A DNA stretch of 64,000 nucleotides from an uncultured beta proteobacterium. GTDB taxonomy: Bacteria; Pseudomonadota; Gammaproteobacteria; Burkholderiales; Casimicrobiaceae. The notes beneath the pieces are model-generated. The model worked only from the letters and a program-made list of their open reading frames with translations, was not told the DNA's origin and did not search any database. The number at the start of each line of letters is the position of its first letter. The first letter of the stretch is position 1. A program made the position numbers and the translations under genes. Positions 44,359 through 64,000 of this stretch are shown here, one piece after another. The stretch spans positions 288,549-352,548 of the forward strand of contig CAVTHT010000007.1 in the NCBI GenBank assembly GCA_963734575.1, written 5' to 3'.

Positions 44359-45051
44359 ATGAGCCTGCGCGAGAACGGGTGGCAAGGCGTGGTGGCCCGG
44401 GTGGCCCGGGCGGCGGTCGCCGCCGGACGCGATCCTGCAACAGTCGGGATCCTCGCGGTCAGCAAGACCTTCCCGTCGGACGCCATTCGTGCCGTCCACG
44501 CCGCCGGAGCCAGGGCCTTCGGCGAGAACTACGTCCAGGAAGCCCTCGCCAAGATGGACGCGCTGGGCGACCTCGCCGACCTCGCGTGGCACCTCATCGG
44601 TCCCCTGCAGAGCAACAAGACGCGCGTGGTGGCCGAGCGCTTCGCCTGGGTGCATACCGTGGACCGGCTGAAGATCGCCGAGCGCCTCGCCGCGGCGCGG
44701 CCTGCGGGGCGGGCACCGCTGCAGCTCTGCATCCAGGTGAACATCAGCGGCGAAGCGACCAAGAGCGGCATCGACGCGAAGGAAGCGCTGGCGCTGGCAC
44801 GCGACGTCGCCGCGCTGCCGCAGGTGCGCCTGCGCGGCTTCATGGGCATCGCCGAGCCCACACCCGACGACGCGCGACAGCGCGCGCAGTTCCGCACGCT
44901 GCGGCAGTGTCTCGAGCGTGCCCGCGCCGAGGGCCTCGACGTCGACACGCTGTCGATGGGGATGTCGGCCGATCTCGAGGCGGCCATCGCCGAAGGCGCG
45001 ACGCTGGTGCGCGTGGGGAGCGCCATCTTCGGCGAGCGTCCCTCGCCATGA
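44359..45051 (+). CDS. yggS: PLP-homeostasis protein (YggS/alanine-racemase-fold)
   Basis: AVSKTFPSDAIRAVHAAGARAFGENYVQEALAK...WHLIGPLQSNK; intact. Confidence 0.85.
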   Translation: MSLRENGWQGVVARVARAAVAAGRDPATVGILAVSKTFPSDAIRAVHAAGARAFGENYVQEALAKMDALGDLADLAWHLIGPLQSNKTRVVAERFAWVHTVDRLKIAERLAAARPAGRAPLQLCIQVNISGEATKSGIDAKEALALARDVAALPQVRLRGFMGIAEPTPDDARQRAQFRTLRQCLERARAEGLDVDTLSMGMSADLEAAIAEGATLVRVGSAIFGERPSP

Positions 45052-47633: not shown

Positions 47634-48662
47634 TCAGGCGGCGCGCGCACCGCCCGACGTGAGCTCGATGGCGAGCGCGAGCGCAGCTTCGAGGCTGCCG
47701 GGATCGGCGGTGCGCGCCTTCTGGGCATCGGCGGCCAGATCGAGCGCGGTGCCGTGGTCCACCGATGTGCGGATGAACGGCAGCCCCAGCGTCACGTTGA
47801 CCCCGCCCCCGAAGCTTGCCGCCTTGAGCGTCGGCAGGCCCTGGTCGTGGAACATGGCGATGATCGCGTCGTAGCCGCGGGCGTGCGCGGGGACGAAGAT
47901 CGTGTCGGCAGGCACGGGCCCGTCGACGTCGATGCCGCGCGCGCGTGCAGCGGCAATCGCCGGCGCGATCACGTCGATCTCCTCGCGCCCCATGTGGCCG
48001 CCTTCGCCGGCGTGGGGATTGAGTCCGCACACCGCGAGCCGCGGATGCGCGATGCCGAAGCGCGCAGCGAGATCGTGCGCGACGATGGCGATGGTTTCCT
48101 CCACGGCCGCGTCCGTGATCGCGGTCGGCACGTCCCTGAGCGGCAGGTGCGTCGTGACCAGCGCGACGCGCAGCGGGTGCGCGGCCTCGCCGCCGACCAG
48201 CAGCATCACCACGCGTGGCGTGTGCGTGCGCTCGGCGAGGAACTCGGTGTGGCCCGAGAAGGGAATGCCCGCGTCGAGCAGCACGCTCTTCTGCACCGGG
48301 GCGGTCACCATCGCCGAGAATGCGCCGGCCGCGCACGCGTCGCAGGCGCGGCTCAGCATGAGCAGCACGCTGTGCGCGTTGGTCGGGTCGGGATGGCCGG
48401 GCCGCACCGGCGCGGCGACCGGCTGGTGCCACACCTCGATTGCGCCGGGCGGGGCGTGGAGCGCGGCGGGATCGTGATCGACGTAGACCGGATGCAGGCC
48501 GATGCGCGCCGCGCGTTCCTCGAGCAGCGGGCGATCGCCGATTACCACGATGCGCGCGGCGCGCGATGCGGCGTCATGGCGGGCGGCGATCATCGCGCAA
48601 AGTTCCGGACCGATGCCGGCCGGCTCGCCGGCGGTCAACGCGATGGTGGGATACGCGCTCAT
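47634..48662 (-). CDS. pdxA: 4-hydroxythreonine-4-phosphate dehydrogenase
   Basis: MSAYPTIALTAGEPAGIGPEL...GHTEFLAE...GLNPHAGEGGHMGREE; intact. Confidence 0.9.
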   Translation of the reverse strand: MSAYPTIALTAGEPAGIGPELCAMIAARHDAASRAARIVVIGDRPLLEERAARIGLHPVYVDHDPAALHAPPGAIEVWHQPVAAPVRPGHPDPTNAHSVLLMLSRACDACAAGAFSAMVTAPVQKSVLLDAGIPFSGHTEFLAERTHTPRVVMLLVGGEAAHPLRVALVTTHLPLRDVPTAITDAAVEETIAIVAHDLAARFGIAHPRLAVCGLNPHAGEGGHMGREEIDVIAPAIAAARARGIDVDGPVPADTIFVPAHARGYDAIIAMFHDQGLPTLKAASFGGGVNVTLGLPFIRTSVDHGTALDLAADAQKARTADPGSLEAALALAIELTSGGARAA

Positions 48663-50891
48663 GAGCGGATGGTGACCTCGCAGGCGTCGCTGTCGCCGAA
48701 CCGCTCGACCTTCACGTCTTCCGTCACGGAGATCCGTGCGTGCGCGCCGTCCATCGCGACCGCCGCCTGCGCGAAGCCATCGAGCGCCTGCGTCGGCCGG
48801 CCGAACAGCCAGAGCTGCGCGAGCGGGCGCGCCGTGTCGATGTCGCCGGTGTGCTGCACCGCGGGTCCCAGCGGCAGCACGTAGCCTTCACGCCCGAAGA
48901 CCGGGAACTGATCGAGCGTCGCGCGGTAGCGCATCACGCGATTGCCGGGCACGCGCTGGCGCGAGTTGAGATCGAACCAGCCGCCCGGCGGCAGCGCGAT
49001 CTCGGCCTCGCCATCGGGCTGCACGATCGGCGCGACGAGGAGCGCATCGCCGCACATGAACTGGGTTTCGCAGCGCCGCGCGAGGGTGCTGCCCGGAAAG
49101 GCGAGCGGCATCGCGCGCATGACCGGCATGCCGGTGCGCGAGGCCTGCTGCAGGACTCGCTCGAGGTACGGCAGCAGGCGGTACCTGAAACGCGATCCAC
49201 TTGCGCGCGATCGCCTCGGCTTGCTCGCCGCCGGCCCACGGCTCGCGCTCCGCCGGCCCGCGCACCACGCAATGCGAGGCGAACAGCGCGGCCTGCAGCC
49301 AGCGCATGCCGAGCTCGGCATCGTGGGGTCCCGCACCATACGTGCCCGGTGCCGCGAAGGCGTGCAGCGGCATGCCGCTCATGCCGAGCGACAGCGCACC
49401 GCGGATCGTCGCGGCGAGCCCCTCCCAGTCGTTCTGCGCGGCGCGGCCCGCGGGCACGGCGGCACGCTGACCCGCGCTCCAGCCGGCACGCGCCACGACG
49501 AGGGGCGGTCCGTCCTGCGGCGCGCGAAAGCGGGCGGCGGCATCGTGCACGCAACGGTTGAACAGCACGGGATAGACGTTGTGCAGGCGCGCGCCGCGCT
49601 CGCCGCCGTGCGCGAACGCATCTTCCGGAACGTGCTCGCCGCCCTCGGTCTGGACGGCATCGACACCCACCGCGAAGAGATCTGCATGGGCATCGCGCCA
49701 CCAGCTCGCCGCCGCGGGGTTGGCGAAATCCACGAGGCCGCAGTCGGGCGGCTGCGCCAGCGCCGACTTGCCGGCCGCCGACGCGTTGCCGAACCATGCG
49801 CCGCTCAGCACGTACGGCCCGCCGTGCGCGGCACGCAGCAGGTAGCCGCGACTCGCGAGCGCCTCGAAGAGCGGCGAATGCACCGACACGTAGGGCGACT
49901 CGCTGACCGCGACGCGAACATCGTGGCGCTTGATGTCGCGCAGTGCTGCGGCGGGCTCGCCGTATCGCGTGGGGTCCCAGTCGAAATCGAAACCGCGTTC
50001 GGTGGTCCACGTCGCAGCCGCATCGAGCGCGATCACGTCGCACGGGATCTTGCGCCGGCGCAGCTGGGCGATGGCCCGCGCCGCATCCTCGGGTGTCGCG
50101 TAGGCGCTGCGCGCGAGCTGCAGCCCCAGGCTCCACAGCGGCACGTCCGGCGCGTGGCCGGTGACCTCGGCGTGGCGCTCGAGGATCGTCGCGGGCGTGT
50201 CGGCGGCGTACAGAAAGAGGTCCAGCGCCTCGTCGTCGACGACGAAGCCGTACGTGCGATGCGACCAGTCCGGATGCCCGACGCCGTGGATCACCGCGCC
50301 GGGCGTGTGCACGAACGCGCCCCACGCCCCCTTGCCACGCCCCGGGCTCCAGGCGAACGGCGTCTCGTGGTGCGCGAGGCCGGCGTTGACGCCCTGCGCG
50401 TCCTGCACCCACGAATGCAGCAGCTGTCCGCGACGATCGAGCGGCCCGTATTTCTCGCCGAGACCATAGACCGGCTCGCCTGCCGCGAGCGCGAAGGCCG
50501 CCATCCACTGGCCACCCTGGCGCACGCGACCGAACGCCGGCAGGCGCGTCGTGCCGTCCGGCAGCTCGTCCTCGATGGAGCCGACGAGCGCGACGCCTTC
50601 GCGCACGAGCCGGAAGGCGAGCGGCGCGCCGCGCAGCTCGAGCGTGGCGTCGCCGCTGCCGAAGCGATAGACGCCGGCTTCCTGCGCGAACGTGCAGGGC
50701 TTTGCGCGCCCCGCGATGAGCCCGTGGTCGGGCCGCGTCTTCGGTCCGATGCGCAGCCGAAATACGCCGGGGCCGAACGACGACACCTCGAGGATGTCGC
50801 CGGTGGACGTTGCGAACGATGCGCCGGCGGACGTCGAGCCGATGCAATGCGGCGCCTCGAGGCGCAGGTACGAGGTGGCGTCGAAAGGCAT
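48659..50891 (-). CDS. glycoside hydrolase family 31 alpha-glucosidase/alpha-xylosidase; one frame switch
   Basis: GEKYGPLDRRGQLLHSWVQDAQG ... VIALDAAATWTTERGFDFDWDPTRY ... C-terminal domain PYLERVLQQASRTGMPVMRAMPLAFPGS. Its stop overlaps the pdxA ATG (ATGA). Confidence 0.8.
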
Positions 50892-50906
50892 CGGCCGGCT
50901 CGCGCG

Positions 50907-51800
50907 TCAGCCGGCGAAGTACGGTTCCGGAAGTCCCGGCACGTCGACGTTCATCGCGAACAATCCGCCCGAGGCGGGAAAGCGCTGCAGCTCGTCGTCG
51001 GACAGCCGCTGGCGCGCCGTGGTGACGTACAGCGTGCGCAGGTCGGCGCCACCGAACGCACACATCGAGGGACAGCTCGCCGGCAGTGCGTAGCGCGCGA
51101 GGAGCTCGCCACGCGGCGAGAACCGCACGACGGCTCCGCCGTGATAGAGCGCGACCCAGTAGCAGCCGTCGCTGTCGACGGCCGCACCATCGGGCCGATC
51201 GCCGGGCGCGGTGAAGCGCGCGAACACGCGGCCGTTGCCGATGTCGCCCGTGCGCGGATCGAAGTCGAACGCGCGCACCGTCTGCGCGGGCGTATCGGCG
51301 TGATACATCGTGCGTCCGTCGGGACTCCATGCGAGGCCGTTGGAGATGGTCAGCTCGCCCACCATGGGCGTGAGCGTGCCGTCCTGCTCGAGGCGCATCA
51401 GCGCGGCCGTCGCGCCGTCGCGCCGCTCGTTCATGTACCCGGGCCAGAAGCGCCCCTGCGGATCGCAGCGGCCGTCGTTGAAGCGATGCGTCGCCGTGTC
51501 GTAGGGCGCGTCGGCGATCCTGCGCAGGGGTTGCCCGGCGCGGTCGAGGCGCCACACGCCGCTGCGCATCGCCGCGATGAAGCCGCCGCTGCGGCACAGC
51601 GCGAAGCAGCCGATCGATTCCGGCAGCTTCATCTTCACGTTGTCCCCACTCCGCGGATCGAACCGATTGAGTGAGGGCTCGTTGATGTCGATCCAGTAGA
51701 GCACCCGCTCGACGAGCGACCATACCGGACCTTCGCCGAGGCTCGCGCGGGCGTCGAGCACGCACGTGAAAGCGGAGGTGGATGGAGACGAATCGTTCAT
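50907..51800 (-). CDS. SMP-30/gluconolactonase/LRE-like lactonase
   Basis: LGEGPVWSLVERVLYWIDI...RFNDGRCDPQGRFWPGYM...ISNGLAWSPDGRTMYHADT...DGAAVDSDGCYWVALYHGGAV. Confidence 0.75.
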   Translation of the reverse strand: MNDSSPSTSAFTCVLDARASLGEGPVWSLVERVLYWIDINEPSLNRFDPRSGDNVKMKLPESIGCFALCRSGGFIAAMRSGVWRLDRAGQPLRRIADAPYDTATHRFNDGRCDPQGRFWPGYMNERRDGATAALMRLEQDGTLTPMVGELTISNGLAWSPDGRTMYHADTPAQTVRAFDFDPRTGDIGNGRVFARFTAPGDRPDGAAVDSDGCYWVALYHGGAVVRFSPRGELLARYALPASCPSMCAFGGADLRTLYVTTARQRLSDDELQRFPASGGLFAMNVDVPGLPEPYFAG

Positions 51801-52726
51801 GCGGCTGCCCGGACGGATATCTCCATCGTACAAGAAAAGGATTCGCCGGCACCCAGCACGCGCGTGCCGGTGTCGCGCTCGCCGCGCTCGGCGCGATTGA
51901 AGGCGTCGGTCATCTGCGTCACCGGCTCGATGGCAAGGAACGTGCCGTGCGGCGGAACGTAGACGACGAAATAGGGACATGCGGTGTCGCCGCGCAGCGT
52001 CGTCACGCGCGCTGCTGCCGGATGACGGAGCTCGGCCGCGCCCTGCCAGCCGGTGTAGACGTTGTCGAGGAAGAGATTGGCGATGCCGCGCGGCGGATCG
52101 AACAGGAACTTGCCGGCGACGGCGGCGTGACGCACGGGCAGGATCGTGTCGTCGGTCTCCCACACGCCTTTCGCACCGAAGCCGAGCGTTGTGTCGGGCG
52201 AGCCGGGGAAGAACGGATGCCAGCCGAGGCCGAACGGGAACGGTCCATCGCCGCGGTTCGTGAGCGTGAGGCGCATGCGCAGCACCGCGTTCGTGTCGTC
52301 GCCACCGAGCTGCAACCACTGCGTCGCGCGGAACGGCCATGGCCATGCGCGTGCATTGGCATCCCCCGTGCCGCTCCTGCGCGGTTCGTGTTCAGAGGCC
52401 AGCAACGCGCTCGTCTCGTCGTGATCGAGCACGTCCCACGGCCGCTGCCAGCCGACGCCATGGATCGCGTGCGGGTGATCGCCGAAGTTGCGGTCGAGCT
52501 GGTGCATCGTGCCGCGGAACGCGAGGCGCCCGCGCTCGATGCGATTCGAGTACGGCACGAGCGGATAGCACGCGTGGCGGCGCACGTCCCCGTCGGCGAT
52601 CGCGTCGGACGGCGTGGCGCGCAGCACCGGTGCGCCCCGCCAGTCGAAGCGCGCGATCGCGCCGCCCGTCGTCGGCGCGAGATCCACGACGGCATCGTCG
52701 TGGCGCAGGGTGAGGAGGGAAGGCAT
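51797..52726 (-). CDS. aldose 1-epimerase family protein
   Basis: YPLVPYSNRI...HAIHGVGWQRPWDVL...GLGWHPFF...; intact. Its stop overlaps the lactonase ATG (ATGA). Confidence 0.7.
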   Translation of the reverse strand: MPSLLTLRHDDAVVDLAPTTGGAIARFDWRGAPVLRATPSDAIADGDVRRHACYPLVPYSNRIERGRLAFRGTMHQLDRNFGDHPHAIHGVGWQRPWDVLDHDETSALLASEHEPRRSGTGDANARAWPWPFRATQWLQLGGDDTNAVLRMRLTLTNRGDGPFPFGLGWHPFFPGSPDTTLGFGAKGVWETDDTILPVRHAAVAGKFLFDPPRGIANLFLDNVYTGWQGAAELRHPAAARVTTLRGDTACPYFVVYVPPHGTFLAIEPVTQMTDAFNRAERGERDTGTRVLGAGESFSCTMEISVRAAA

Positions 52727-52834
52727 GGTCGACGATCGCGGCCAACTGCGGCGCAGGAGATGCGCTCGATTCTACGCGACGGCCCTCGCGCTCGCGCCGG
52801 CACGGTCGTTGCAATCGCGCGCCGCAGCGTGACC

Positions 52835-52840
52835 TATAAT
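52835..52840 (+). promoter_or_regulatory. perfect TATAAT -10 hexamer upstream of azlC; the paired -35 (TTGCAA at 52809) gives a 20-nt spacer, so this is uncertain
   Basis: A perfect AT-rich hexamer in a ~70% GC background, 58 bp upstream of the azlC ATG. Confidence 0.25.
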
Positions 52841-52897
52841 GCGGCTCGACCAGGGAGGCGCCGGCTTCCCTTTTTTGTTGCCCGCGATCACGCTGCC

Positions 52898-53605
52898 ATG
52901 TCACGCGCCTTTTCCGCCAGCGACTTCCGCGAAGGGTTCGTGGAGATGCTGCCCGCGTGCATCGGCCTCATCCCGTTCGGTCTCGTGACGGGTATCGGCG
53001 CTGCGGCGGCCGGTGCAGACTTCTGGGCCGCGCTCGGGATGAGCGCGATCATCTTTTCCGGTGCGGCGCAGGTGCTCGCGGCGCAGCTCTTCGCGAGCGG
53101 TGCGCCGGTCGGCGTCATCATCCTGACGTGTTTCGTGGCCGGCCTGCGCTTCCTGCTCTACAGCGCTGCCATGGCGCCGTACCTGCGGCCGTTGCCCGCG
53201 CGGTGGCAGCAGGGGCTCGCGTTCCTGCTCACCGACCAGGCCTTCGCCGCGTCGATCCGCCGCTTCGACGCGAGCGCCGATCCGCACGCGGGCGCATCGC
53301 ATTTCCTCGGCGGCGGGTCCGCGCTGTGGATCGGCTGGCAGGTGACCAACATCATCGGGTTCTTCGCCGGCGCGTCGATCCCGGCGTCGTGGTCGCTCGA
53401 TTTCGCGGTGCCGCTGTGCTTCCTCGCGCTGGTTGCGCCCGCTTTGCGCAGCTCCGCGCACGTCGCCGCCGCCGTCACCGCGGGCGTGAGCGTGCTGCTG
53501 CTCGGCGGGCTGCCCATGAAGCTCAACTTGATCGCGGCCGGGCTCCTCGGCATCGCCGCGGGCGTGGCCACCGAGTTCGGCCACGCGCGGGCGAAGCGCG
53601 CATGA
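52898..53605 (+). CDS. azlC: branched-chain amino acid exporter component AzlC
   Basis: MSRAFSASDFREGFVEMLPACIGLIPFGLVTGIGAAAAGADFWAALGMSAIIFSGAAQ... Confidence 0.75.
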   Translation: MSRAFSASDFREGFVEMLPACIGLIPFGLVTGIGAAAAGADFWAALGMSAIIFSGAAQVLAAQLFASGAPVGVIILTCFVAGLRFLLYSAAMAPYLRPLPARWQQGLAFLLTDQAFAASIRRFDASADPHAGASHFLGGGSALWIGWQVTNIIGFFAGASIPASWSLDFAVPLCFLALVAPALRSSAHVAAAVTAGVSVLLLGGLPMKLNLIAAGLLGIAAGVATEFGHARAKRA

Positions 53606-53669
53606 GGGCGCCGGGCCGCCCCCAGCCCGAATGCCGGAGCGCGCAGCGCGGGGCACTCCAGTGAGCCCG

Positions 53670-53999
53670 ATGCTGAAGATCTGGGTGGTGATCGTCGTCG
53701 TCGGCGGGCTCAACTACCTTTCGCGCCTGTCGTTCATTGCGCTCTTCTCGCGGCGGAGCATGCCCACCGGCGTGGCGCGGGCGCTCAAGTACGTGCCTGC
53801 TGCGATGCTCACCGCGCTGATCGTCCCGATGATCCTGGCGGCACCTGCGGGCGTGCTGCCGGTCCATCTCAACGCGCGCGTGTGGGCCGCGCTCGTGGCG
53901 GGGGTGGTGGCGTTCCGCACTCGCAGCACGCTCGCGACGCTCGTCACGGGCATGGCGACGCTGTGGATTCTCGAGGCCACGGTCCTGCCCGCGGCCTGA
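53670..53999 (+). CDS. azlD: AzlD-family small membrane protein
   Basis: MLKIWVVIVVVGGLNYLSRLSFIALFSRRSMPTGVARALKYVPAAMLTALIVPMIL. Downstream partner of azlC. Confidence 0.6.
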   Translation: MLKIWVVIVVVGGLNYLSRLSFIALFSRRSMPTGVARALKYVPAAMLTALIVPMILAAPAGVLPVHLNARVWAALVAGVVAFRTRSTLATLVTGMATLWILEATVLPAA

Positions 54000-54047
54000 C
54001 CGGGGCGCTGCCATCGGCTAACATTGCAGTTCTCCCCCGGAGATCCC

Positions 54048-54893
54048 ATGCGCTTCGAAGGCACCGACACGTACGTCGCCACCCCGGACCTGATGCTCGC
54101 GGTCAACGCGGCGATCGCGCTCGAGCGTCCGCTGCTCGTCAAGGGCGAGCCGGGGACCGGCAAGACGATGCTCGCCGAGGAAGTCGCGCGCTCGCTGCAG
54201 CGACCCCTCTACCAGTGGCACGTCAAGTCCACGACCAAGGCGCAGCAGGGCCTGTACGAGTACGACGCCGTGTCGCGGCTGCGCGATTCGCAGCTCGGCG
54301 ATGGCCGCGTGGCCGACATCGCGAACTACATCAAGCGCGGCGTGCTGTGGGAGGCGTTCGAGGCGGAGACCCCGGCCGTCGTGCTGATCGACGAGGTGGA
54401 CAAGGCCGACATCGAGTTTCCGAACGACCTCCTGCGCGAGCTCGACCGCATGGAGTTCTACGTCTACGAGACGCAGCAGACCATCCGGGCGCGGCATCGG
54501 CCCCTCGTCGTCATCACCAGCAACAACGAGAAGGAGCTGCCCGACGCCTTCCTGCGCCGCTGCTTCTTCCATTACATCCGCTTCCCCGATCGCGAGACCA
54601 TGACGCGCATCGTCGACGTGCACTTCCCGGGGCTCAAGAAGGCTCTGCTGCAGGAGGCGCTGGAGGTGTTCTTCAACCTGCGCGACGTGCCGGGACTGAA
54701 GAAGCGGCCGTCGACGTCCGAGCTCCTCGACTGGCTCAAGCTGCTGCTCGCCGAGGACATCCCGCCGGAGGCGCTGCACAGCACCGACCGCAAGGTGCTG
54801 ATCCCGCCGCTGCACGGGGCGCTGCTCAAGAACGAGCAGGACGTGCATCTCTTCGAGCGCGTCGCCTTCATGGCCCGCGCCGGCAGGAGCTGA
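54048..54893 (+). CDS. MoxR-like AAA+ ATPase (AAA_5 / CoxD-NorQ-CbbQ type)
   Basis: LLVKGEPGTGKTMLAEEVA (Walker A), VLIDEVDKAD (Walker B), arginine finger region; intact. Confidence 0.8.
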   Translation: MRFEGTDTYVATPDLMLAVNAAIALERPLLVKGEPGTGKTMLAEEVARSLQRPLYQWHVKSTTKAQQGLYEYDAVSRLRDSQLGDGRVADIANYIKRGVLWEAFEAETPAVVLIDEVDKADIEFPNDLLRELDRMEFYVYETQQTIRARHRPLVVITSNNEKELPDAFLRRCFFHYIRFPDRETMTRIVDVHFPGLKKALLQEALEVFFNLRDVPGLKKRPSTSELLDWLKLLLAEDIPPEALHSTDRKVLIPPLHGALLKNEQDVHLFERVAFMARAGRS

Positions 54894-54903
54894 CGGGCCC
54901 GCC

Positions 54904-55518
54904 GTGGCCTTCGTCGATCCCGTCGTGCTCGCCGGCCGGCGCGTGACGCTGGAGCCGCTCGCGCACGGGCACGAAGCGGCACTGCGTGCGGCCGCGTCCG
55001 ACGGCGCGCTGTGGAACCTCTGGTACACCTCCGTGCCTTCGCCCGAGCGGGTCGGCGCGTACATCGAGACCGCACTCGACATGCGCGATCGCCTCGGCGC
55101 GATGCCGTTCGTGGTGCGCGACAACGCCGAGGACGCGATCGTCGGCACCACGCGCTATTTCAACGTCGAGGCGACGCACCGGCGCCTGGAGATCGGCCAC
55201 ACGTGGTACGCGAAGCGCGTGCAGCGCACCGCCGTCAACACGGAGTGCAAGCTGCTGCTGCTGGGTCACGCCTTCGAGCAGCTCGGCTGCATCGCCGTCG
55301 AGTTCCGCACCAGCGCGTTCAACTTCGCCTCGCGCGAGGCGATCGCACGCCTCGGCGCGAAACAGGACGGCATCCTGCGCAATCACATGCTGCTGCCCGA
55401 TGGCACGCGGCGCGACACCGTGGTGTTCAGCATCCTCGACAACGAGTGGCCGGCGGTGCGCAGGCACCTCGCCTGGCGCCTCGAGCGCCACGGCGGCGCC
55501 GGGGTCGGCCGCGAATAG
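54904..55518 (+). CDS. GNAT-family N-acetyltransferase (RimJ/RimL-like)
   Basis: VTLEPLAHGHEAALRAAASDGALWNLWY...RRLEIGHTWYAKRVQRTAVNTECKLLLLGHAFEQLGCIAVEFRTSAFNFASREAIARLG. Confidence 0.75.
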   Translation: MAFVDPVVLAGRRVTLEPLAHGHEAALRAAASDGALWNLWYTSVPSPERVGAYIETALDMRDRLGAMPFVVRDNAEDAIVGTTRYFNVEATHRRLEIGHTWYAKRVQRTAVNTECKLLLLGHAFEQLGCIAVEFRTSAFNFASREAIARLGAKQDGILRNHMLLPDGTRRDTVVFSILDNEWPAVRRHLAWRLERHGGAGVGRE

Positions 55519-55526
55519 AGGCGGCC

Positions 55527-56702
55527 ATGCTGGTCGACTTCTTCCTGCATCTCAAGTCCGCGCGCCTGCCGGTCTCCACGCGCGAATTCCTAACTCTGCT
55601 CGAGGCGCTGGACGAGCGGGTGGTGTCACTCTCGCTCGACGACTTCTACGTGCTCGCGCGCACGTGCCTCGTGAAGGACGAGGCGCATTTCGACCGCTTC
55701 GATCTCGCGTTCGGCTCGTACTTCAAGGGCATCAACGCGATCTTCGACATTCGCGCCGAGATCCCGGACGCGTGGCTGCGCAAGGAGTTCGAGCGCCATC
55801 TCAGCGCCGAGGACAAGGCGAGGATCGAGGCGCTCGGGGGTCTCGACAAGCTCATGGAGACGTTCAAGCAGCGCCTCGCCGAGCAGAAGGAGCGCCATGC
55901 CGGCGGCTCCAAGTGGATCGGCACGGGTGGGACGAGTCCCTTCGGCGCGTACGGCTACAACCCGGAGGGCATCCGCATCGGCCAGGTGGGCAGCGGCAAC
56001 CGCAGCGCGGTCAAGGTGTGGGACGAGCGCAGCTTCCGCAATCTCGACGGCGAGGTCGAGCTCAACACGCGCAACCTCAAGATCGCGCTGCGCAAGCTGC
56101 GGCGCTTCGCGCGCGAGGGCGTGCCCGAGGAGCTCGATCTCGAGGGCACGATCGAAGGCACCGCGAAGAACGCGGGGTGGCTCGATCTCCACCTCATGCC
56201 CGAGCGGCGCAACCGCATCAAGGTGCTGCTCTTCCTCGACGTCGGCGGCTCGATGGATCCGCACGTGCGTGCCTGCGAGGAGCTCTTCTCGGCGGCGAAG
56301 AGCGAGTTCCGGCACCTCGAGTACTTCTACTTCCACAACTGCGTCTACGACCACGTGTGGCGCGACAACGGCCGGCGCCGCAACGAGCGGAGGTCGACCC
56401 TGGAGATCCTGCGCACCTACGGCCCGGACTGGAAGCTCATCTTCGTCGGTGACGCCGCGATGAGCCCGTACGAGCTCATGGAGGTCGGCGGCAGCGTCGA
56501 GTACAGCAACGACGAGCCCGGGGTCGTGTGGCTCACGCGCCTCGTCGAGCATTTCCGGCGCGCCATCTGGTGGAATCCCGAGCCGCCACGCGCGTGGGAG
56601 TACACGCGCTCGACCCAGATCATCCAGCAGGTGCTGGGACCGCGCATGTTCCCGCTGACCCTCGACGGGGTGGGGCAGGGCATCGACGCCCTGCGACACT
56701 GA
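55527..56702 (+). CDS. VWA-domain protein, CoxE-like; partner of the MoxR ATPase
   Basis: MLVDFFLHLKSARLPVSTREFLTLLEAL...VLLFLDVGGSMDPH (MIDAS DxSxS)... Confidence 0.8.
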   Translation: MLVDFFLHLKSARLPVSTREFLTLLEALDERVVSLSLDDFYVLARTCLVKDEAHFDRFDLAFGSYFKGINAIFDIRAEIPDAWLRKEFERHLSAEDKARIEALGGLDKLMETFKQRLAEQKERHAGGSKWIGTGGTSPFGAYGYNPEGIRIGQVGSGNRSAVKVWDERSFRNLDGEVELNTRNLKIALRKLRRFAREGVPEELDLEGTIEGTAKNAGWLDLHLMPERRNRIKVLLFLDVGGSMDPHVRACEELFSAAKSEFRHLEYFYFHNCVYDHVWRDNGRRRNERRSTLEILRTYGPDWKLIFVGDAAMSPYELMEVGGSVEYSNDEPGVVWLTRLVEHFRRAIWWNPEPPRAWEYTRSTQIIQQVLGPRMFPLTLDGVGQGIDALRH

Positions 56703-56703
56703 G

Positions 56704-57576
56704 GTGACGCCGGCGCCGGAGCTCCAGGCGGCCGTGCTGGCGGCCCTCGGGGCGGGCGGCGCACCGGCGAGCTGGCGGGTCGCTGCGAACAGCAGCTTCA
56801 ACGCCACTTGGCGCCTCGACTGCGGCGCCGGAAGCTTCTTCGTGAAGTGCGGCCCGCCGGAGCGGCACGCCATGCTCGATGGCGAAGCGGCGGGACTTGC
56901 CGCGCTGGCAGCCACGCGTGCGGTGCGCGTGCCGGCGGTGGCCGCGCTCGGTGGCACGGAGCGCCACGCGTTCCTCGCGCTGGAGTGGCTGAATCTGGTC
57001 CGCGGTGGGTGCGACGCCGCGCTCGGCCGGGCGCTGGCTGCGCTGCATCGCTGCACGTCCGAGCGCTTCGGCTGGACGCGCGACAACACGATCGGCAGCA
57101 CGCCGCAGGAGAACGCGTGGTCGGCAACGTGGATGGAGTTCTTCCGCGATCGCCGTCTTGCACCGCAGTTCCGGCGCGCGCGGGACCGCGGCGTCCGCGA
57201 GCTTACCGACGCGGGTGAGCGCTTGCTCGCGCGGGTGCCCGCACTGCTCGCCGGGCATCAACCCCGACCGTCGCTGTTGCACGGCGACCTGTGGTCCGGC
57301 AATGCCGGGCGGCTGCAGGACGGCACCCCCGTGGTGTTCGACCCCGCGGTGTATTTCGGCGATCGCGAAGCCGATCTCGCCATGACCGAGCTCTTCGGCG
57401 GCTTCGGGCCCGACTTCCATGCGGCGTATCGGGAAGCCTGGCCGCTCGACCCGGGCTACGCCACGCGGCGCACGCTCTACAACCTCTACCACGTGCTCAA
57501 CCACTGCAACCTCTTCGGCGGCGGCTACGCGCAACAGGCGCTCGCCATGATCGCCGAGCTGCGCGCGGCCGCGTGA
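56704..57576 (+). CDS. fructosamine/ketosamine-3-kinase family protein
   Basis: SFFVKCGPPERHAMLDGEAAGLAALA...LLHGDLWSGNAG...FDPAVYFGDREADLAMTELFGGF. GTG start 2 nt after the VWA stop. Confidence 0.8.
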   Translation: MTPAPELQAAVLAALGAGGAPASWRVAANSSFNATWRLDCGAGSFFVKCGPPERHAMLDGEAAGLAALAATRAVRVPAVAALGGTERHAFLALEWLNLVRGGCDAALGRALAALHRCTSERFGWTRDNTIGSTPQENAWSATWMEFFRDRRLAPQFRRARDRGVRELTDAGERLLARVPALLAGHQPRPSLLHGDLWSGNAGRLQDGTPVVFDPAVYFGDREADLAMTELFGGFGPDFHAAYREAWPLDPGYATRRTLYNLYHVLNHCNLFGGGYAQQALAMIAELRAAA

Positions 57577-57760
57577 CGGCGCCGCCGGCCCTTCTTCCCG
57601 CGAGGAACCAGCATGGCCGGCGTGATTCACGCGCGGTTCGCTGCATCCAGTCTTGCCTGCGCTACGTACATCGGACACGGCCAGGCGTCGCCAATCGCCG
57701 CCCGGCCGCCGGCGCCAGAACATGGCGTCGCCCGCGAACGTTCGGAGAGGAGATCCAATC

Positions 57761-59294
57761 ATGTCCGCTGCTGCCACCCTGCCCGCCTTCCGGCGCGCGC
57801 TCGCCCCGTTGCTACTCGCGAGCGCCATCGCCGCGGCGTGGGCCCCGCCCACGCACGCCTCGAGCCATCGCGAGGCGCCCTTCATCGCCGGCCTGCCCAA
57901 GGTCGACGCGAGCGACTTCTACATGTTCCGCAGCTACGAGCCGGGCCGCGAGGACTACGTGGTCCTGGTCGCCAACTACATCCCGCTGCAGGATGCCTAC
58001 GGCGGTCCCAACTTCTTCAAGCTGGACGCGAATGCGCTGTACGAGATCCACGTCGTCAACGACGGCGGCGCGCGCGAGAACCTCACGTTCCAGTTCCGGT
58101 TCCAGAACGTGAACGACGACAACCAGCTCACGGTCGGCGGCAAGCAGGTCTCGATCCCGCTGGTGCAGAACGGCGTCAAGGACGTGAACCAGCCCAACGA
58201 CCCGGCGCTCAACGTGCACGAGACGTACACCGTCGACGTCGTCCGCGGCCCGCGCCGTACCGGCAACCGCGCAGCCGGTGACGAACCTCAACACCGGCGG
58301 CACGAGCTTCGACAAGCCGGTCGACAACATCGGCATGAAGACCATCTCGGACTACGTCCGCTACGGCAATCGCCACGTGTGGGATGTCGCGATTCCCGGA
58401 TGCACCGGCGGCGGCCGGGTGTTCGTCGGCCAGCGCAAGGATCCGTTCGTCGTGAACCTCGGCGAGACCTTCGACCTCGTCAACATCAAGTATCCCGCCG
58501 TCGAGCTCAACCCGGCGGCCGAATTCGCGACGGTCGACACGCTGTCCGACAAGAACGTCACCTCGATCATCACTGGAGGTGCCGATCGCGTGCCTCACCG
58601 AAGGCAAGGGCACGGTCATCGGCGCGTGGACGACGCGCGAGCCTTCCCGCAAGCCAGGTGCTCGCGGCGACGGGCGGCAGCGGCCTCGATCCGACGACGC
58701 AAAGCGGCGAGTACGTGCAGGTCTCGCGCCTCGGCATGCCGCTGGTGAACGAGGTCGTCATCGGGCTCAAGGACAAGAACCGCTTCAACGCGAGCGAGCC
58801 CAAGGACGACGCGCAGTTCGCCGACTACGTGACCAACCCGACGCTGCCGGCGCTGATCGAGATCCTGTTCGGCAAGGCCGGCGTGAAAGCGCCGACCAAC
58901 TTCCCGCGCACCGACCTCGTGGCGGCCTTCCTCACCGGCGTGCCGGGCCTCAACCAGCCCGCGAGCGTCACGGCCTCCGAGATGCTGCGTCTCAACACGG
59001 CCATCGCACCGACGCCCGAAGGGCTCGCAGAAGCGCCTCGGCGTGCTCGCCGGCGACAACGCGGGATTCCCGAACGGGCGCCGGCCCGGTGACGACGTCG
59101 TCGACATCGAGCTGCGCGTGGCGATGGGCGTGCTGTGCACGCTGTCGCTCGGCGGCTGCACGCCGGCCGATGCGCCGGCTGGGACGCTGCACTACACGGA
59201 CGGCGCCTACATCACGGACGCGTACTTCTCGGCGGACTTTCCGTTCCTGCGCGCGCCGCATCCCGGGATCGCCGAACGCCGGACAACCCGTTGA
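57761..59294 (+). CDS. secreted DUF4331-family protein; several frame switches
   Basis: RBS ggagaggag then ATG. Signal peptide, then SSHREAPFIAGLPKVDASDFYMFRSY...HVVNDGG, ...LGMPLVNEVVIGLKDKNRFN..., and C-terminal GDNAGFPNGRRPGDDVVDIELRV across frames. Confidence 0.65.
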
Positions 59295-59379
59295 AGGCGA
59301 AGCAGCGCTGACGTAGCGCGAGCGGTGCCGCGCCTCCCGGTGCGGCACCGTCCTTCCTGCATCCGCACGCGAGGTCGCG

Positions 59380-60580
59380 ATGCTCCGTTACCGCTCGTTC
59401 CCCAGGGCTGCACGCCTTGCCGTCGCAGCCCTGCTCTTCTCTCCGTCGTCGCGACCGTAGCGGCGGCGCCGTACACGCCGGCGTCCGACGACGTGGTGCT
59501 GGAGCGCCTGCCCGAGAAGCTCGATCCGTCGCTCGCGGAACTGAAGCGCCTGCGCACGGCGCTCGTGCGGCGACCAGACGACACCACTCTCGCCGCACGC
59601 CTCGCGCGGCGCGCGATAGAGGCATCGCGCGAGACCGGTGATCCGCGCTTCCTCGGCCAGGCGCAGGCGGCACTGGCGCCATGGTGGAACGCGCCGGACG
59701 CGCCGGTGGACATCGTGGTGCTGCGCGCGACGATCCGCCAGAGCCTGCACGACTTCCCCGCAGCGCTCGCGCGATCTCGATCGCGTGCTGGCGATCGCAC
59801 CCGCGCACGGCGCAGGCGCGGCTCACCCGCGCCACCGATGCTCACCGTGGTCGGCCGCTACGACGAGGCGACGCGCGACTGCGACGCGCTCGCGCGCCTC
59901 GCCGTCGAGCTCGTGACTCGCGCGTGCCGTGCGGCACCCGCCAGCCTCGACGGACGCGCGGCGGAAGCGTACGCAAGCCTGGCGAGCGCCCTGCAGCGCA
60001 CCCGGCGCGACCACGCCGGAGCTGGCCGCGTGGGGCCATACCCTCGCCGCGGAGATCGCCGCACGCCGCGGCGACGCGACCGCCGCGGAGGCGCACTTCC
60101 GGCAGGCACTCGCCGCCGATCCGCGCGATGCCTACCTGCGCGGCGCGTACGCCGATTTCCTGCTCGATCGCGGCCGGCCGCGCGAAGCCGCTGCACTCGT
60201 CGCGGGCGAGCTGCGCAACGACGGTCTCCTGCTGCGCCTCGCCCTCGCGGAAACGCGCTTCACCGATGCGACAGCGGAGAGCGGCGCGCTGCCGCCGACA
60301 TCGCGAGGACCTCGCTGCCCGCTTCGATGCGTCGCGGCGCGCGGCGATATCGTGCACCGGCGCGAGGAGGCGCGCTATGCGCTGCTGCTCGAAGGCGATG
60401 CCGCCGCGCGCTCTGGCGCTGGCCCGCGCCAACTGGGCGGTGCAGCGCGGAGCCGGCGGACCTGCGCATCCTCGTCGAGGCCGCACGCGCGCGACGAACG
60501 AGCGACGCGCCTCGACGTCGTGCGCCGCTGGCGGCACGACGCACCGACTGCGACGACGTCGCGGTGGTCGCCGCACTGGG
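59380..60580 (+). CDS. TPR-repeat protein with signal peptide; frame switches, 3' end not resolved
   Basis: MLRYRSFPRAARLAVAALLFS..., then TPR-like repeats (GDPRFLGQAQAALAPWWNAPD..., AEAHFRQALAADPRDAYLRGAYADFLLDRGRPREAAALV). Confidence 0.5.
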
Positions 60581-60591
60581 AGAGCGCGCGC

Positions 60592-61754
60592 ATGAAGCGC
60601 ATCGATGCGCTGCTCGCCGTGCTCGCTGCTGGCGTGCCACGTTCGCGACCGGCGGCGCTCGCGCACAAGCCGAGCGACAGCTATCTCACGCTGAAGCGCG
60701 ACGGCGCGGCGTGCAGGGCCGCTGGGACATCGCGCTGCGCGACCTCGACGCCGCGCATCGGCCTCGACGCCAACGGCGACGGCGAGATCACCTGGGGCGA
60801 GCTGCGCGCGCGCGCGCGCGGCGATCGCCGCGTACGCCCTGTCGCGCCTGGCGCTGCGCTCCGGCGGCGAGCCGTGCGCGCTGCCACGTCGCGCAGCTGC
60901 GTGGATCACCACACCGACGGCGCCTACGCGGTGCTCGAGCTCGTCGGCGACTGCCCGCAGCGGCCCGCACGCTCGACAGTCGAGCTATCGGCCTGCTGTT
61001 CGACATCGACCCGCAGCATCGCGGACTGCTGCAGTTCGTGGAGCGCGGGCGGCACGCACCAGCGTGGTCTTCGCCGGCGGACCGCGCCGCGACAGGTCGT
61101 CGGCGGCGAGCCGGCGGCGCGCTGCGCAGTTCCGCCACCTACGTGCGCGAAGGCGTGTGGCACATCTGGCTCGGCGTTCGACCACATCCTGTTCCTGCTG
61201 TCGCTGCTGCTGCCCGCGGTGCTCGTGCGCCGCGACGCGGCGCTGGCAGCCGGCGGCGTCGTTCCGTGCCGCGTTCGTCGACGTGCGAAGGTCGTCACCG
61301 CGTTCACGCTCGCGCACTCGATCACGCTGTCGCTCGCGGCGCTCGGCGTCGTTGCGCTGCCGTCGCGCTGGGTGGAGTCGGCGATCGCGCTCTCGGTGGT
61401 GCTCGCCGCGCTCAACAACCTGCTTCCCGCTCGTGCGCCAAGCGACGCTGGATCGCCGCATTCGCGTTCGGCCTCGTGCACGGCTTCGGCTTCGCGGGCG
61501 CGCTGCGCGGATCTCGGCCTGCCGTCGGGCTCGCTCGCGCTTTCGCTCGCCGGCTTCAACCTCGGCGTCGAGCTCGGCCAGCTCGCGATCGTCGCGGCGT
61601 TCCTGCCGCTCGGCGTTCGCGTTGCGCGCGACGTCGCGCCTACCGCCGCGTCGCGCTTGCCGGCGGCTCCGCGGTCATCGCCGCGGTCGCGGCGGTGTGG
61701 CTCGTCGAGCGCGCGTTCGACGTGCCGGTGTTCGCCGCGTTCGCCGCGTCCTGA
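60592..61754 (+). CDS. HupE/UreJ_2-family putative metal (Ni/Co) transporter with an N-terminal periplasmic domain; frame switches
   Basis: RBS gggagag then ATG. MKRIDALLAVLAAG...AHKPSDSYLTLK..., then TM core HILFLLSLLLPAVLV, KVVTAFTLAHSITLSLAALGVVALP, FAFGLVHGFGFAGAL, and LSLAGFNLGVELGQLAIVAAFLPL. Confidence 0.65.
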
Positions 61755-61758
61755 GCGC

Positions 61759-62279
61759 TACAGGAGCGGTGCCCGCGCTCGGATCGGCGGGAAGCTCCTC
61801 CGGCACGTCCTGCCAGGGCATGACGTGGATCCCGCTCGCGAGCAGCGATACGCCGACGGGCTCACCCTTGGCGAGCCGGTTGCGCATCGCGACGTGCATC
61901 GTGAGCGTCGTGTGCAATGCCATGTCGGGGCGGCCGTTCACGTGGATGCTCAGGTTGGCCTGCGCGCCCAGCGGGATGAATTCGGCGATGACGCCCTGCA
62001 CCGGGTTCTCGTGCTCGCCGCGCGAGGGCCGGTCGCGCCGATGCAGGATCACCGCGTCGGCGGGAATCGTCCACGCCACCTGCGTTCCGGGCTCGAAGCC
62101 CGCGCGTGCCGCGCCTCGAGCTGCACGCCCTGCCAGTCGAGCACCGTCATCGTGTCGCCCGCGGGCTGCGCGGCGACGCGCGCGCTGAACACGTTCTTGA
62201 TGTCGACGAGACGCGCGACGAGCACGTTCGCCGGGGCGAGTCGTGCAGGCACGGTCCTTGCGCGCCTTGCCCGCCTCAT
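61759..62279 (-). CDS. tandem TOBE (Mop-like, molybdate/oxyanion-binding OB-fold) module. It is either a separate ~140-aa di-Mop protein or the C-terminal extension of the upstream MVP-like ORF. One 1-nt indel lies between the two TOBE domains.
   Basis: TOBE-1: ANVLVARLVDIKNVFSARVAAQPAGDTMTVLDWQGVQLEA...GFEPGTQVAWTIPADAVILH (compare ModC NVLPGTL...LRLGDQTLWV...LPPGSRLRVRIAARDVSLA). TOBE-2: NPVQGVIAEFIPLGAQANLSIHVNGRPDMALHTTLTMHVAMRNRLAKGEPVGVSLLASGIHV (compare ModE SARNQLPGII...). Confidence 0.5.
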
Positions 62280-63820
62280 CCACGCCGAAGATGGCGCGGC
62301 GGATGAGCACGCTGGCGTTCTTGTGGAACGTCTCGAAGTCGTTCTCCGCCGCCACCTGGCGGATGCGCGAGGCGAGGTTCTCGCACACGTACCCGATGAA
62401 GTCGTTCACCCGGAAGATGGCCTTGTCCTTCTCCGAGTCCCCCTCCACGTCGAACTGCCACTTGTACGAGAGCTTGATGCGCAGCCGGGCGTGATCCCGC
62501 GTGGCCACCTCGAACAGATCCGTGGCGAAGTCCGGCCCCAGGCGCAGCATGAGCACCTTGAGCTGCCTCGGCCGCTTGGGCGTGCTGCCGGACAGGTCCA
62601 GCACCGTCACGTCCTCGTACGGGCGCAGCATCACCTTCGCCGGGCCGAACTCGACTCGCGCGTGGTTGGTCTCGAAGTCGTTGATCAGCACCGCCGTGTT
62701 GTCCTCGATGCGCAGCACGATGGCTCGCGTGCGGTCGATCCGCTCCGGAGACGGCGCGGCCGAGCGCGGCGCCTTGGGGTCCTTGCCATCCACGGCGGCC
62801 AGCTGCGGCGCGGGAGGAGGCGGCGCCAGCCCCAGCAGCGCCTCGGCCTCCGCGGAGAGCCGCTTCTCGTGCAGCTCCTGGTGGGCCTCGGGCATGAACT
62901 GGCACGGGCCCTGGACCAGCGACACCTTGCCGGAGCGCAGATCCCTCACGTAGAGGCCCTCGCCCTGCCCCAGCGACAGCGCGACGATCTCCTTGTGGAT
63001 CAGCACCCGCTCGTTGGGCACGTACGTCCGAGGCCCGCGCACGATCCACGTATCACCCGCCTTGCGCGCCCGCGACTCGCCGCCCTCGTCCGGCTCGGAG
63101 AAGTCATCGAGCGCCTGGAGCTTCAGCCCCTGCATCTCGGAGAGCACGTGCTTGCGGCGGACGTCGCCCTCGAGCGCCTCGCCCGGCTCGAGGAAGAAGA
63201 CGTCCGGCCCGGAGATGATCTTGCGGCGGCCCTCCTGGATCTTCCCGGTGGTGCGGTCCACGGGGTTGAGCACCACGCAGTACTCGGTCTCCTTGAGCAT
63301 GCGAGCCTTCTCGGCGGAGACGACGACCACCGCGGCATTGGGCACGTAGCGGCCGGGGCCACGGACCAGCCACTCGTCACCGGCCTCGCGGCGACGCGGC
63401 CCGCCGGGGGCCCGCTCGTCCATGAAGGCGTTGAGCGCCTGCAGCCGCAGCGCGTCGTAGACTCCGAGCACGTGCTCGGGGGTGATCTCTCCCTCCATCT
63501 CTTCGCCGGGGTACAGCGGGAAGACCTGGGGACCGACGCGCACCTCGCGATCTCCCACCGCGATGCGCGCCTGGCCGAACTCGTCCAGCGCGACCTTGCC
63601 GCCCTCGCGCACCACGGGGTTGCGCACCACGCACCAGTTGCCGGTGCCCAGCTCGATCATCCGGCTCTTGGTGACGAGCGTGAGGTGGGCCTCCAGGGTG
63701 AGGACCTTGGGGCCGATCTCCACCAGCACGACGCCGCGGTTCGCGTCCTCGATGTAGGCGTACTCGCGGTTCTTCAGGGAGATGCGCTGGATGGCTTCGG
63801 TTGGAGTTCGGGATCGCCAT
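62280..63820 (-). CDS. major vault protein (MVP) homolog: N-terminal MVP/vault repeats plus MVP shoulder (SPFH-like) domain. One frame switch at codon ~8. There is no in-frame stop before the TOBE module.
   Basis: RBS GAGGAGG-N5-ATG at 63820. Segment-by-segment matches to human MVP: FPLYPGEEMEGEITP vs FPLYPGEVLEKDITP; AGDEWLVRGPGRYVPN vs AGDEWLFEGPGTYIPR; YCVVLNPVD...FFLEPGEALEG...VLSEMQGLKLQAL vs YCVILDPVG...FFLQPGEQLEQ...VLSEQQGLLLRAL; GDTWIVRGPRTYVPN vs GDHWLIRGPLEYVPS; EGLYVRDLRSGKV vs EGIYVQDVKTGKV; TPKRPRQLKVLMLRLGPDFATDLFEVATRDHARLRIKLSYKWQFDV vs [85 protein letters not shown] vs [39 protein letters not shown]. Confidence 0.8.
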
Positions 63821-64000
63821 GAGTTCCTCCTCGGGTTCGCGGCAAGGGACTGCCAGCCGCGTGCCGCCCAGAGCCCAGAGCGGCGCCCGTTTTCCAGCAC
63901 CAAAATGGCACGCCTCCGCTCCAATCCGGCCCCGAGGCCGTGGTAGCTTCCGGCGCATGCCCGACGTCAGCTCGCGAAAGTTCGTGCAGATCTTCCAGCT

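Follow-up and report, generated by a model that had tools for sequence, protein, structure and literature searches.

A widely conserved DUF4331-TPR-HupE/UreJ_2 operon with a plausible role in trace-metal handling, beside a probable chimeric join in a Casimicrobiaceae metagenome contig

We analysed a 64,000-nucleotide stretch of DNA (hereafter the window; contig CAVTHT010000007.1 of assembly GCA_963734575.1, positions 288,549 to 352,548) from an uncultured beta proteobacterium of the Casimicrobiaceae, and in particular three co-directional coding regions on its plus strand between positions 57761 and 61754. The window has a G+C content of approximately 70%, and the three genes encode, in order, a secreted DUF4331 protein (57761..59311, approximately 514 aa after the correction of six single-base insertions), a secreted TPR protein (59380..60595, the end being approximate; approximately 400 aa after the correction of 13 single-base frameshifts) and a long-form HupE/UreJ_2 protein (60592..61754, with 18 single-base frameshifts). 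All three lack an intact open reading frame (ORF), as both the listed ORFs and the plot of G+C at third codon positions change frame repeatedly, and the Pfam matching of their products (E ≤ 0.01) was done on frame-stitched translations. Stitched from six frame pieces, the first product matched PF14224 (DUF4331) over model positions 1-421 of 421, at 492.4 bits relative to a cut-off of 27. The top TPR-family match of the second was TPR_19, at 28.8 bits, and residues 186-351 of the third matched PF13795 (HupE_UreJ_2) at 166.8 bits relative to a cut-off of 24.5, a match that is also precomputed for its intact orthologues. The end of the TPR gene overlaps the HupE/UreJ_2 start codon (ATGA), as it does in the orthologues. 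An earlier, sequence-only reading of this DNA had listed the same three genes and gave gene content and positions correctly, but it underestimated how badly their frames are broken. Its label for the third gene, a HupE/UreJ putative Ni/Co permease, holds at the level of the PF13795 family; the classical family PF04955 was not returned by the Pfam scan of this product at E ≤ 0.01, in which PF13795 was the sole match.

DUF4331 proteins have two family-wide blocks, SSHREAP at the N-terminus and GFPNGRRxxDDVxD, and the window protein has both. The two motifs quoted from it in the sequence-only reading were each located, HREAPF at 57866-57883 in the N-terminal region and GDNAGFPNGRRPGDDVVDI at 59052..59108, the latter being the block of highest conservation in the family. 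Among 100 diverse DUF4331 proteins, chosen down to 37% identity, P436 of this block is invariant and G434, N437, G438, R439, R440, D443, D444 and D447 are each conserved in at least 90%. In the same 100 proteins the predicted signal-peptide cleavage site, of the AXA type, has A or G at position -1 in 94% and a small or aliphatic residue at -3 in 98%, and it is followed by S at +1 (92%), S at +2 (92%) and H at +3 (96%). The Ser-Ser-His codons at 57860..57868 would thus encode the mature N-terminus of the window protein, which we predict to be an X-X-His site resembling the amino-terminal Cu(II)- and Ni(II)-binding (ATCUN) motif. The family is large: approximately 5,000 representative clusters were found with a threshold of E ≤ 0.001, and its close sequences exceed 8,000 in number. 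NCBIfam holds no model for either DUF4331 or HupE_UreJ_2, a search of PDB sequences with DUF4331 came back empty, and our literature search found nothing on DUF4331/PF14224 or on HupE_UreJ_2/PF13795 under those names. A first structure model of DUF4331, built on a shallow alignment, reached a pLDDT of 57.6 and was discarded.

The HupE protein has a composite layout: a signal peptide, an N-terminal His, a periplasmic domain of approximately 170 aa and the PF13795 membrane domain, with approximately 160 mature residues preceding PF13795 in the stitched window protein. The His codon (60664..60666) comes directly after the predicted cleavage site, between ALA and HKPSD (60661-60687), and this His is conserved in orthologues, being invariant in 32 orthologous N-terminal domains and present in at least 95% of a set of 57. 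Other invariant residues of this domain are D49, D57, C93, C119, Y130, D137 and H140. The periplasmic domain also contains an EF-hand-like loop, DANGDGEITWGE (60766..60801), over which the profile of the domain matches EF-hand calcium-binding proteins weakly (E approximately 0.008).

Are these three genes a genuine unit? When one genome was scanned for each species, 80 loci were obtained, 68 of them with enough downstream sequence for gene order to be evaluated, and in 47 of the 68 the order DUF4331, TPR, HupE_UreJ_2 is kept on the same strand, the TPR/HupE overlap typically being 4 bp. The sources of the 80 loci are Casimicrobiaceae-like and other Betaproteobacteria, Oxalobacteraceae, Comamonadaceae, Marinobacter, Pseudomonas, Acinetobacter, Steroidobacteraceae, Nitrospiraceae, Verrucomicrobia, Thermoanaerobaculia and Melainabacteria, and the 47 with kept order span Beta- and Gammaproteobacteria, Nitrospiraceae and Verrucomicrobia. 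The four distinct metagenome loci of close relatives that have annotated genes (L001-L004) all show this order too, although their flanks vary. Downstream of HupE lie unrelated genes of the housekeeping type. Three distant DUF4331 representatives lie on contigs too short to include neighbours. We conclude that the three-gene operon is real and widely conserved, and the conserved unit proposed in the sequence-only reading is borne out. No hydrogenase or urease genes were found in any annotated neighbourhood of the operon loci. On the upstream side, a block of genes for a MoxR-type AAA ATPase, a GNAT acetyltransferase and a VWA (CoxE-like) protein (54024-56702, plus strand) precedes the operon in the window, and it stays upstream in all the close relatives L001-L004, with other genes inserted between.

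An exact match to the sequence TGCATCC-N16-CGTA lies at 57642..57668 on the plus strand, with 93 nt between its end and the start codon of DUF4331. This motif was first recognised in five close loci, which share it upstream of the gene, and with the same spacing it precedes DUF4331 in 31 of the 83 loci whose upstream regions were compared. All the locus sequence together, 2.49 Mb with both strands counted, contains only 44 matches, and several of those that do not face DUF4331 share its intergenic region in divergent orientation; one such divergent copy, in L039, precedes a sigma-factor gene. The window motif equals the consensus of the ECF18 group of extracytoplasmic function (ECF) sigma factors, -35 GCATCC and -10 CGTAT, as tabulated for RpoP of Cupriavidus metallidurans (PMC13492112, Table 4). 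Within 8 kb of the operon, homologues of the linked sigma factor, whose top NCBIfam match is SigK, occur in 27 of the 85 loci whose neighbours were surveyed, and RskA-type anti-sigma factors in 19; ECF18 and ECF19 sigma factors make up the SigK-RskA group (PMC7509140). A scan of 57400-62000 gave no sigma-70-type promoter, the region from 52 to 64 kb no riboswitch or other Rfam RNA element, and the 64-kb window no sigma or anti-sigma gene. Judged from these motif and neighbourhood patterns, the best explanation is that an ECF18-type (SigK/RskA-like) promoter drives the operon. A copy of the motif with one mismatch, TGCATCC-N16-CGAA, also occurs at 44728-44754 (plus strand) and is at chance level, at least two matches being found in 17 of 100 shuffles.

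Genes with a known or suspected connection to metals recur around the operon. Across the same 85 loci, TonB-dependent receptors are found in 16 and DUF4198 genes in seven; DUF4198 proteins are periplasmic Ni- or Zn-binding proteins (PMC12537917; PMC12663993). In three Duganella loci (L022, L023 and L029; approximately 4.4-12.1 kb) divergent sigma and anti-sigma genes are followed by genes for a TonB-dependent receptor, DUF4331, TPR and HupE_UreJ_2 on one strand, giving an apparent full pathway; TGCATCC-N16-CGTA is absent there. We also examined two candidate clues to the identity of the metal and rejected both. NikR and NicO genes follow the operon in L001 and L002, but a nickel regulon is not indicated, as NikR occurs in only four of the 85 loci, all from the closest clade, and reflects local synteny. 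Copper-handling genes, for DUF2946, PCuAC/LpqE-like, CopC and CopD proteins, lie approximately 3 kb downstream of the operon in L004 (L004:14551-17473) and were also seen in JGI sample 3300047160, but this arrangement, found in one locus, is specific to one lineage.

What, then, might the operon do? Our preferred reading, to which we attach a probability of roughly 0.6, is that it is a widespread envelope operon for the capture and import of trace metal, and that the frameshifts in the window and its join to a major-vault-protein (MVP) gene are artefacts. A metal-handling role for the operon is plausible because of four features taken together: the S-S-H N-terminus of DUF4331, the N-terminal His (His1) of the HupE protein, the recurrence of TonB-dependent receptors and DUF4198 among its neighbours and the Cu and Ni binding reported for "anglerases" (Nat Commun 2025), in which an Ang-1 or Ang-2 domain is fused to a HupE/UreJ-2 permease (PMC12537917; RbAng-1a, PDB 9GCE). 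The His1 domain of a Rhodobacteraceae anglerase binds Cu2+ with a Kd of 74 nM and Ni2+ with a Kd of 220 nM, and it was proposed to feed the permease (PMC12537917). In the most likely working model, an ECF18-type sigma factor would switch on the operon, and DUF4331, once exported and processed, would expose its Ser-Ser-His and bind an ion of the Cu(II)/Ni(II) class. The N-terminal His domain of the permease would then receive the ion, perhaps with the TPR protein serving as a scaffold, and the permease would carry it across the inner membrane, and in some lineages the TonB-dependent receptor of the same cluster would provide the outer-membrane step. A more far-reaching formulation, that DUF4331 proteins are a new and widespread periplasmic metal-capture family in which an ATCUN-type S-S-H site for Cu(II) or Ni(II), a TPR adaptor and the His domain of a HupE/UreJ-2 permease act together under SigK-like ECF18 control, is one that we offer tentatively, as a possibility with the odds somewhat against it.

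Several observations weigh against metal capture and import. When PDB sequences were searched with the profile of the 32 N-terminal domains, 9GCE (RbAng-1a) was not among the matches, although the threshold was as loose as E ≤ 10. Approximately 30% of close DUF4331 loci have neither TPR nor HupE genes, and in these DUF4331 is followed by DUF4198 (L042, L050), by a TonB-dependent receptor gene (L027, L034) or by an unrelated gene; in L008, the nearest relative at the species level, a convergent ABC ATPase gene comes straight after it. One representative, at 48% identity, belongs to a tandem DUF4331/DUF4331-CHRD pair that lacks a permease gene. The promoter motif is missing from the Oxalobacteraceae loci, also when the pattern is relaxed, despite an adjacent sigma-factor gene, and the NikR/NicO (four loci) and CopC/CopD (one locus) neighbours, being local synteny, do not identify the metal. 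As a separate observation, a CHRD domain is found at the C-terminus of some DUF4331 proteins, which are encoded in tandem pairs without HupE (L007:3712-6994; P0124, P0132, P0135).

The alternative that survives best, although we regard it as rather unlikely, is that the operon, instead of importing metal, serves the envelope or the cell surface as part of a SigK-like stress regulon. Its secreted protein might, for instance, be structural, adhesive or enzymatic and work with a membrane partner, and the N-terminal His residues would be put to some other use. Such a module would suit the control of the operon, which is apparently exerted by an ECF18/SigK-type sigma factor with RskA and not by a classical metal repressor; save for NikR in its four loci no metal regulator was seen, and the 52-64 kb scan gave no riboswitch. 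It would also suit the DUF4331 protein itself, which at approximately 480 aa when mature is large, has many invariant Asp, Asn and Arg residues and has a CBM/Ig-like beta-sandwich as its N-terminal half, features that could belong to a Ca-dependent enzyme or binding protein. However, binding of Cu and Ni via His1 has been demonstrated for long forms of the permease family that includes the third gene product (PMC12537917), the TonB-dependent receptors and metal-binding DUF4198 proteins recur in the same clusters, and 96% of DUF4331 members share the X-X-His N-terminus, all of which speak for metal capture.

A second question is raised by the condition of the genes in the window: were their reading frames broken in the cell or in the assembly? 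The closest homologue of the window DUF4331 protein is P0001 (88% identity), encoded on a 500-kb metagenome contig (locus L001) with which positions 47758-62245 of the window are collinear at 81.5% nucleotide identity (blastn). Frame changes were counted by a protein-to-DNA alignment permitting frameshifts against the intact L001 proteins: six were found in DUF4331 (corrected identity to P0001 455/514, 88%), 13 in TPR (319/397, 80%) and 18 in HupE_UreJ_2 (300/376, 80%), and the corrected genes contain no in-frame stops. Relative to L001 the dN/dS values are 0.11 for DUF4331, 0.18 for TPR and 0.26 for HupE_UreJ_2, which are within or just above the range of 0.06-0.25 in seven intact neighbours, and third codon positions hold most of the differences. 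Because of these dN/dS values and the lack of in-frame stops we consider the approximately 37 frameshifts most likely to be sequencing or assembly errors in a weakly supported consensus, as judged by sequence comparison, and not the marks of gene decay.

That the operon is here a truly decaying pseudogene cluster with biological frameshifts is improbable. It would explain why 37 frame changes are restricted to three genes when the nine genes of the approximately 10 kb upstream have one between them, and the lack of TPR and HupE in L008 implies that these genes are dispensable. Yet neutral decay lasting long enough for 37 indels should have wiped out both the dN/dS signal, which resembles that of the neighbours, and the third-position bias, and both are retained in the absence of in-frame stops. 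Natural bacterial pseudogenes are deletion-biased, but the indels for which an exact placement was possible, the six of DUF4331 (near 58271, 58572, 58636, 59015, 59259 and 59278), are without exception +1 insertions outside homopolymers. Nor are the breaks peculiar to the operon: between 9.3 and 11.4 kb, on the minus strand, a Peptidase_M3 (oligopeptidase-type) gene lies in at least two frames, and between 11.5 and 13 kb on the same strand an NTP-transferase and an APH-family kinase can be detected only as fragments. Frameshift density climbs from the single event upstream through the six, 13 and 18 of the three genes, with three more in a 530-nt ABC-transporter remnant, and then falls to zero in the adjoining 1.56 kb of MVP sequence. 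Breaks of the same type are present in another assembly. Single-base frameshifts number four in these genes in L010 (L010:7983-11872), by its naming apparently a long-read metagenome-assembled genome (MAG), as opposed to none in the short-read MAG loci L009 and L011. From this comparison, G+C-rich operon genes may attract consensus errors in long-read assemblies. Patches with frequent frame changes were also seen at approximately 22-25, 28-31, 33-38 and 45-47 kb, and sequence quality is uneven throughout the window; the window-wide composition HMM behind this observation mixed up gene boundaries with frameshifts and was used only qualitatively.

The rise and sudden end of the errors coincide with a break in the sequence itself. 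The sequence-only reading had placed an MVP/TOBE locus next to the operon, but this locus is a minus-strand ORF of 749 aa (61675-63924) that reads through two unrelated truncated genes across a breakpoint at approximately 62245..62290. On the operon side lies the C-terminal remnant of an ABC-transporter ATPase with its TOBE region (61761..62290, minus strand; residues approximately 211-386), which is convergent to the operon and outside it. The ATPase is intact in L001 (386 aa) and L008 (383 aa), where it has both ABC_tran and TOBE domains, and these two closest relatives are the only ones of 87 related DUF4331 loci with an orthologue. A molybdate-specific assignment is doubtful also for the intact L001 protein, which scored 213 bits with modC_ABC relative to an NCBIfam cut-off of 285 and similarly with PhnT2 and PotA, and the window remnant, limited to its C-terminal residues, does not qualify as ModC. 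On the other side of the breakpoint is a truncated MVP homologue (62251..63924, minus strand), also outside the operon, that matched the Pfam families Vault, Vault_2, Vault_3, Vault_4 and MVP_shoulder. It has the repeats and the shoulder but falls short of a full-length MVP, as the match ends at residue 523: 474 of 521 residues (91%) are shared with a Vitiosangium protein of 761 aa, of which residues 4-523 are covered, and all named matches at 84-92% identity are from Myxococcota (Archangium, Hyalangium, Corallococcus, Melittangium). The window MVP is approximately 40% identical to animal MVP, and the family seems to be well established in Myxococcota.

Synteny with the betaproteobacterial L001 stops at 62245 (blastn), where the Casimicrobiaceae-like sequence ends, and similarity to myxobacterial MVP starts at 62251. 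Because the truncation of both genes, the phylogenetic discordance and the abrupt change in quality (40 frameshifts in 4.5 kb on one side versus none in 1.56 kb on the other) all fall at the same point, the junction at approximately 62.25 kb is very probably a chimeric assembly join between two unrelated genomes, although a true illegitimate recombination may have produced it. The best explanation of this arrangement is that MVP/TOBE is not a neighbour of the operon in vivo. The sequence-only reading went further and joined the three genes, the TOBE module and the MVP-like shell protein in one metal-handling island of approximately 6 kb; physical adjacency in the window and the binding of oxyanions by TOBE domains in some transporters speak for such an island, but it is hardly credible given that none of the 87 related loci has an MVP gene, that the one here is truncated and Myxococcota-like, and that the TOBE region is what is left of the C-terminal end of a convergent ATPase kept in two relatives only, with a TOBE_2 match of 20.3 bits that is under the Pfam cut-off of 21. 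In orthologous loci the DUF4331/TPR/HupE adjacency is thus conserved while MVP/TOBE is not kept, and a metal-handling role for the three genes is plausible.

Two messages follow. The first is a warning: the frameshifts and the MVP/TOBE "fusion" in this window are best put down to a poor consensus and a chimeric contig, and not to biology. The second is that the remaining interest lies at the level of the family rather than the window, in the uncharacterised DUF4331-TPR-anglerase operon. For a large family with no assigned function, found in soil and aquatic bacteria, the TPR and anglerase-type permease partners, the ECF18-type promoter and the near-invariant X-X-His together give a specific and testable metal hypothesis, and there are culturable carriers of the genes in Marinobacter, Duganella, Massilia and Pseudomonas. 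If the more far-reaching formulation is true, the operon would constitute a previously undescribed route for the import of trace metal from the outer to the inner membrane.

It is instructive to set the operon beside the known systems it resembles. In the ECF18/ECF19 SigK-RskA regulons, such as those of Mycobacterium tuberculosis SigK and C. metallidurans RpoP, the promoter consensus is the same and RskA_C genes are likewise adjacent in many of our loci; we found no report tying these regulons to DUF4331 or HupE_UreJ_2, and literature searches combining HupE with anti-sigma factors or TonB turned up nothing useful. The ATCUN motif is an amino-terminal Cu(II)/Ni(II) site, found in albumins and other proteins, that is formed by a free NH2-X-X-His in which residue 2 is not Pro. 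The predicted S-S-H N-terminus of DUF4331 fits this definition, with the difference that the residues which follow, R-E-A-P, are also conserved and could form a site of another type. Classical HupE/UreJ proteins (PF04955) are small inner-membrane permeases of multiple helices, the first of which is rich in His and Asp. The window protein likewise has a His/Asp-rich first helix, VWHIWLGFDHILFLL, and the HupE/UreJ family is associated with Ni and Co uptake (PMC12537917). It differs from the classical proteins, which are those of hydrogenase and urease clusters, in belonging to PF13795, in having no such genes nearby, and in the addition of a periplasmic domain and two secreted partner proteins.

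There are also parallels to the DUF4198 proteins, of which IsDUF4198 (Ni; PDB 9GCB) and Zcp of Neisseria gonorrhoeae (Zn) are examples. These are secreted beta-sandwich proteins that bind metal through a processed N-terminus and are encoded near TonB-dependent receptors, and in L042 and L050, where TPR and HupE are absent, DUF4198 lies directly downstream of DUF4331. DUF4331 is nevertheless unrelated and far larger, and its conserved His, at which metal binding is predicted, is at position 3 and not at position 1.

A further comparison is with the anglerases, of which several divergent clades have been reported (PMC12537917). Their commonest neighbours, according to the main text of that paper, are "proteins of unknown function" and DUF4198, and the main text names neither DUF4331 nor TPR partners, nor control by ECF18 (PMC12537917). 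Two invariant Cys and the EF-hand-like loop also set the window domain apart from theirs. The layout, however, is shared: a signal peptide, His as the first mature residue, a domain of approximately 170 aa, a linker and PF13795. The N-terminal domain and PF13795 are in one polypeptide in the window protein too, its His at 60664..60666, which would follow directly on the predicted cleavage, corresponds to the anglerase His1, and His1 is invariant in the set of window orthologues as well. For the window HupE protein we take over the role proposed for the anglerases, in which the N-terminal domain would capture the metal and then feed it to the permease to which it is joined.

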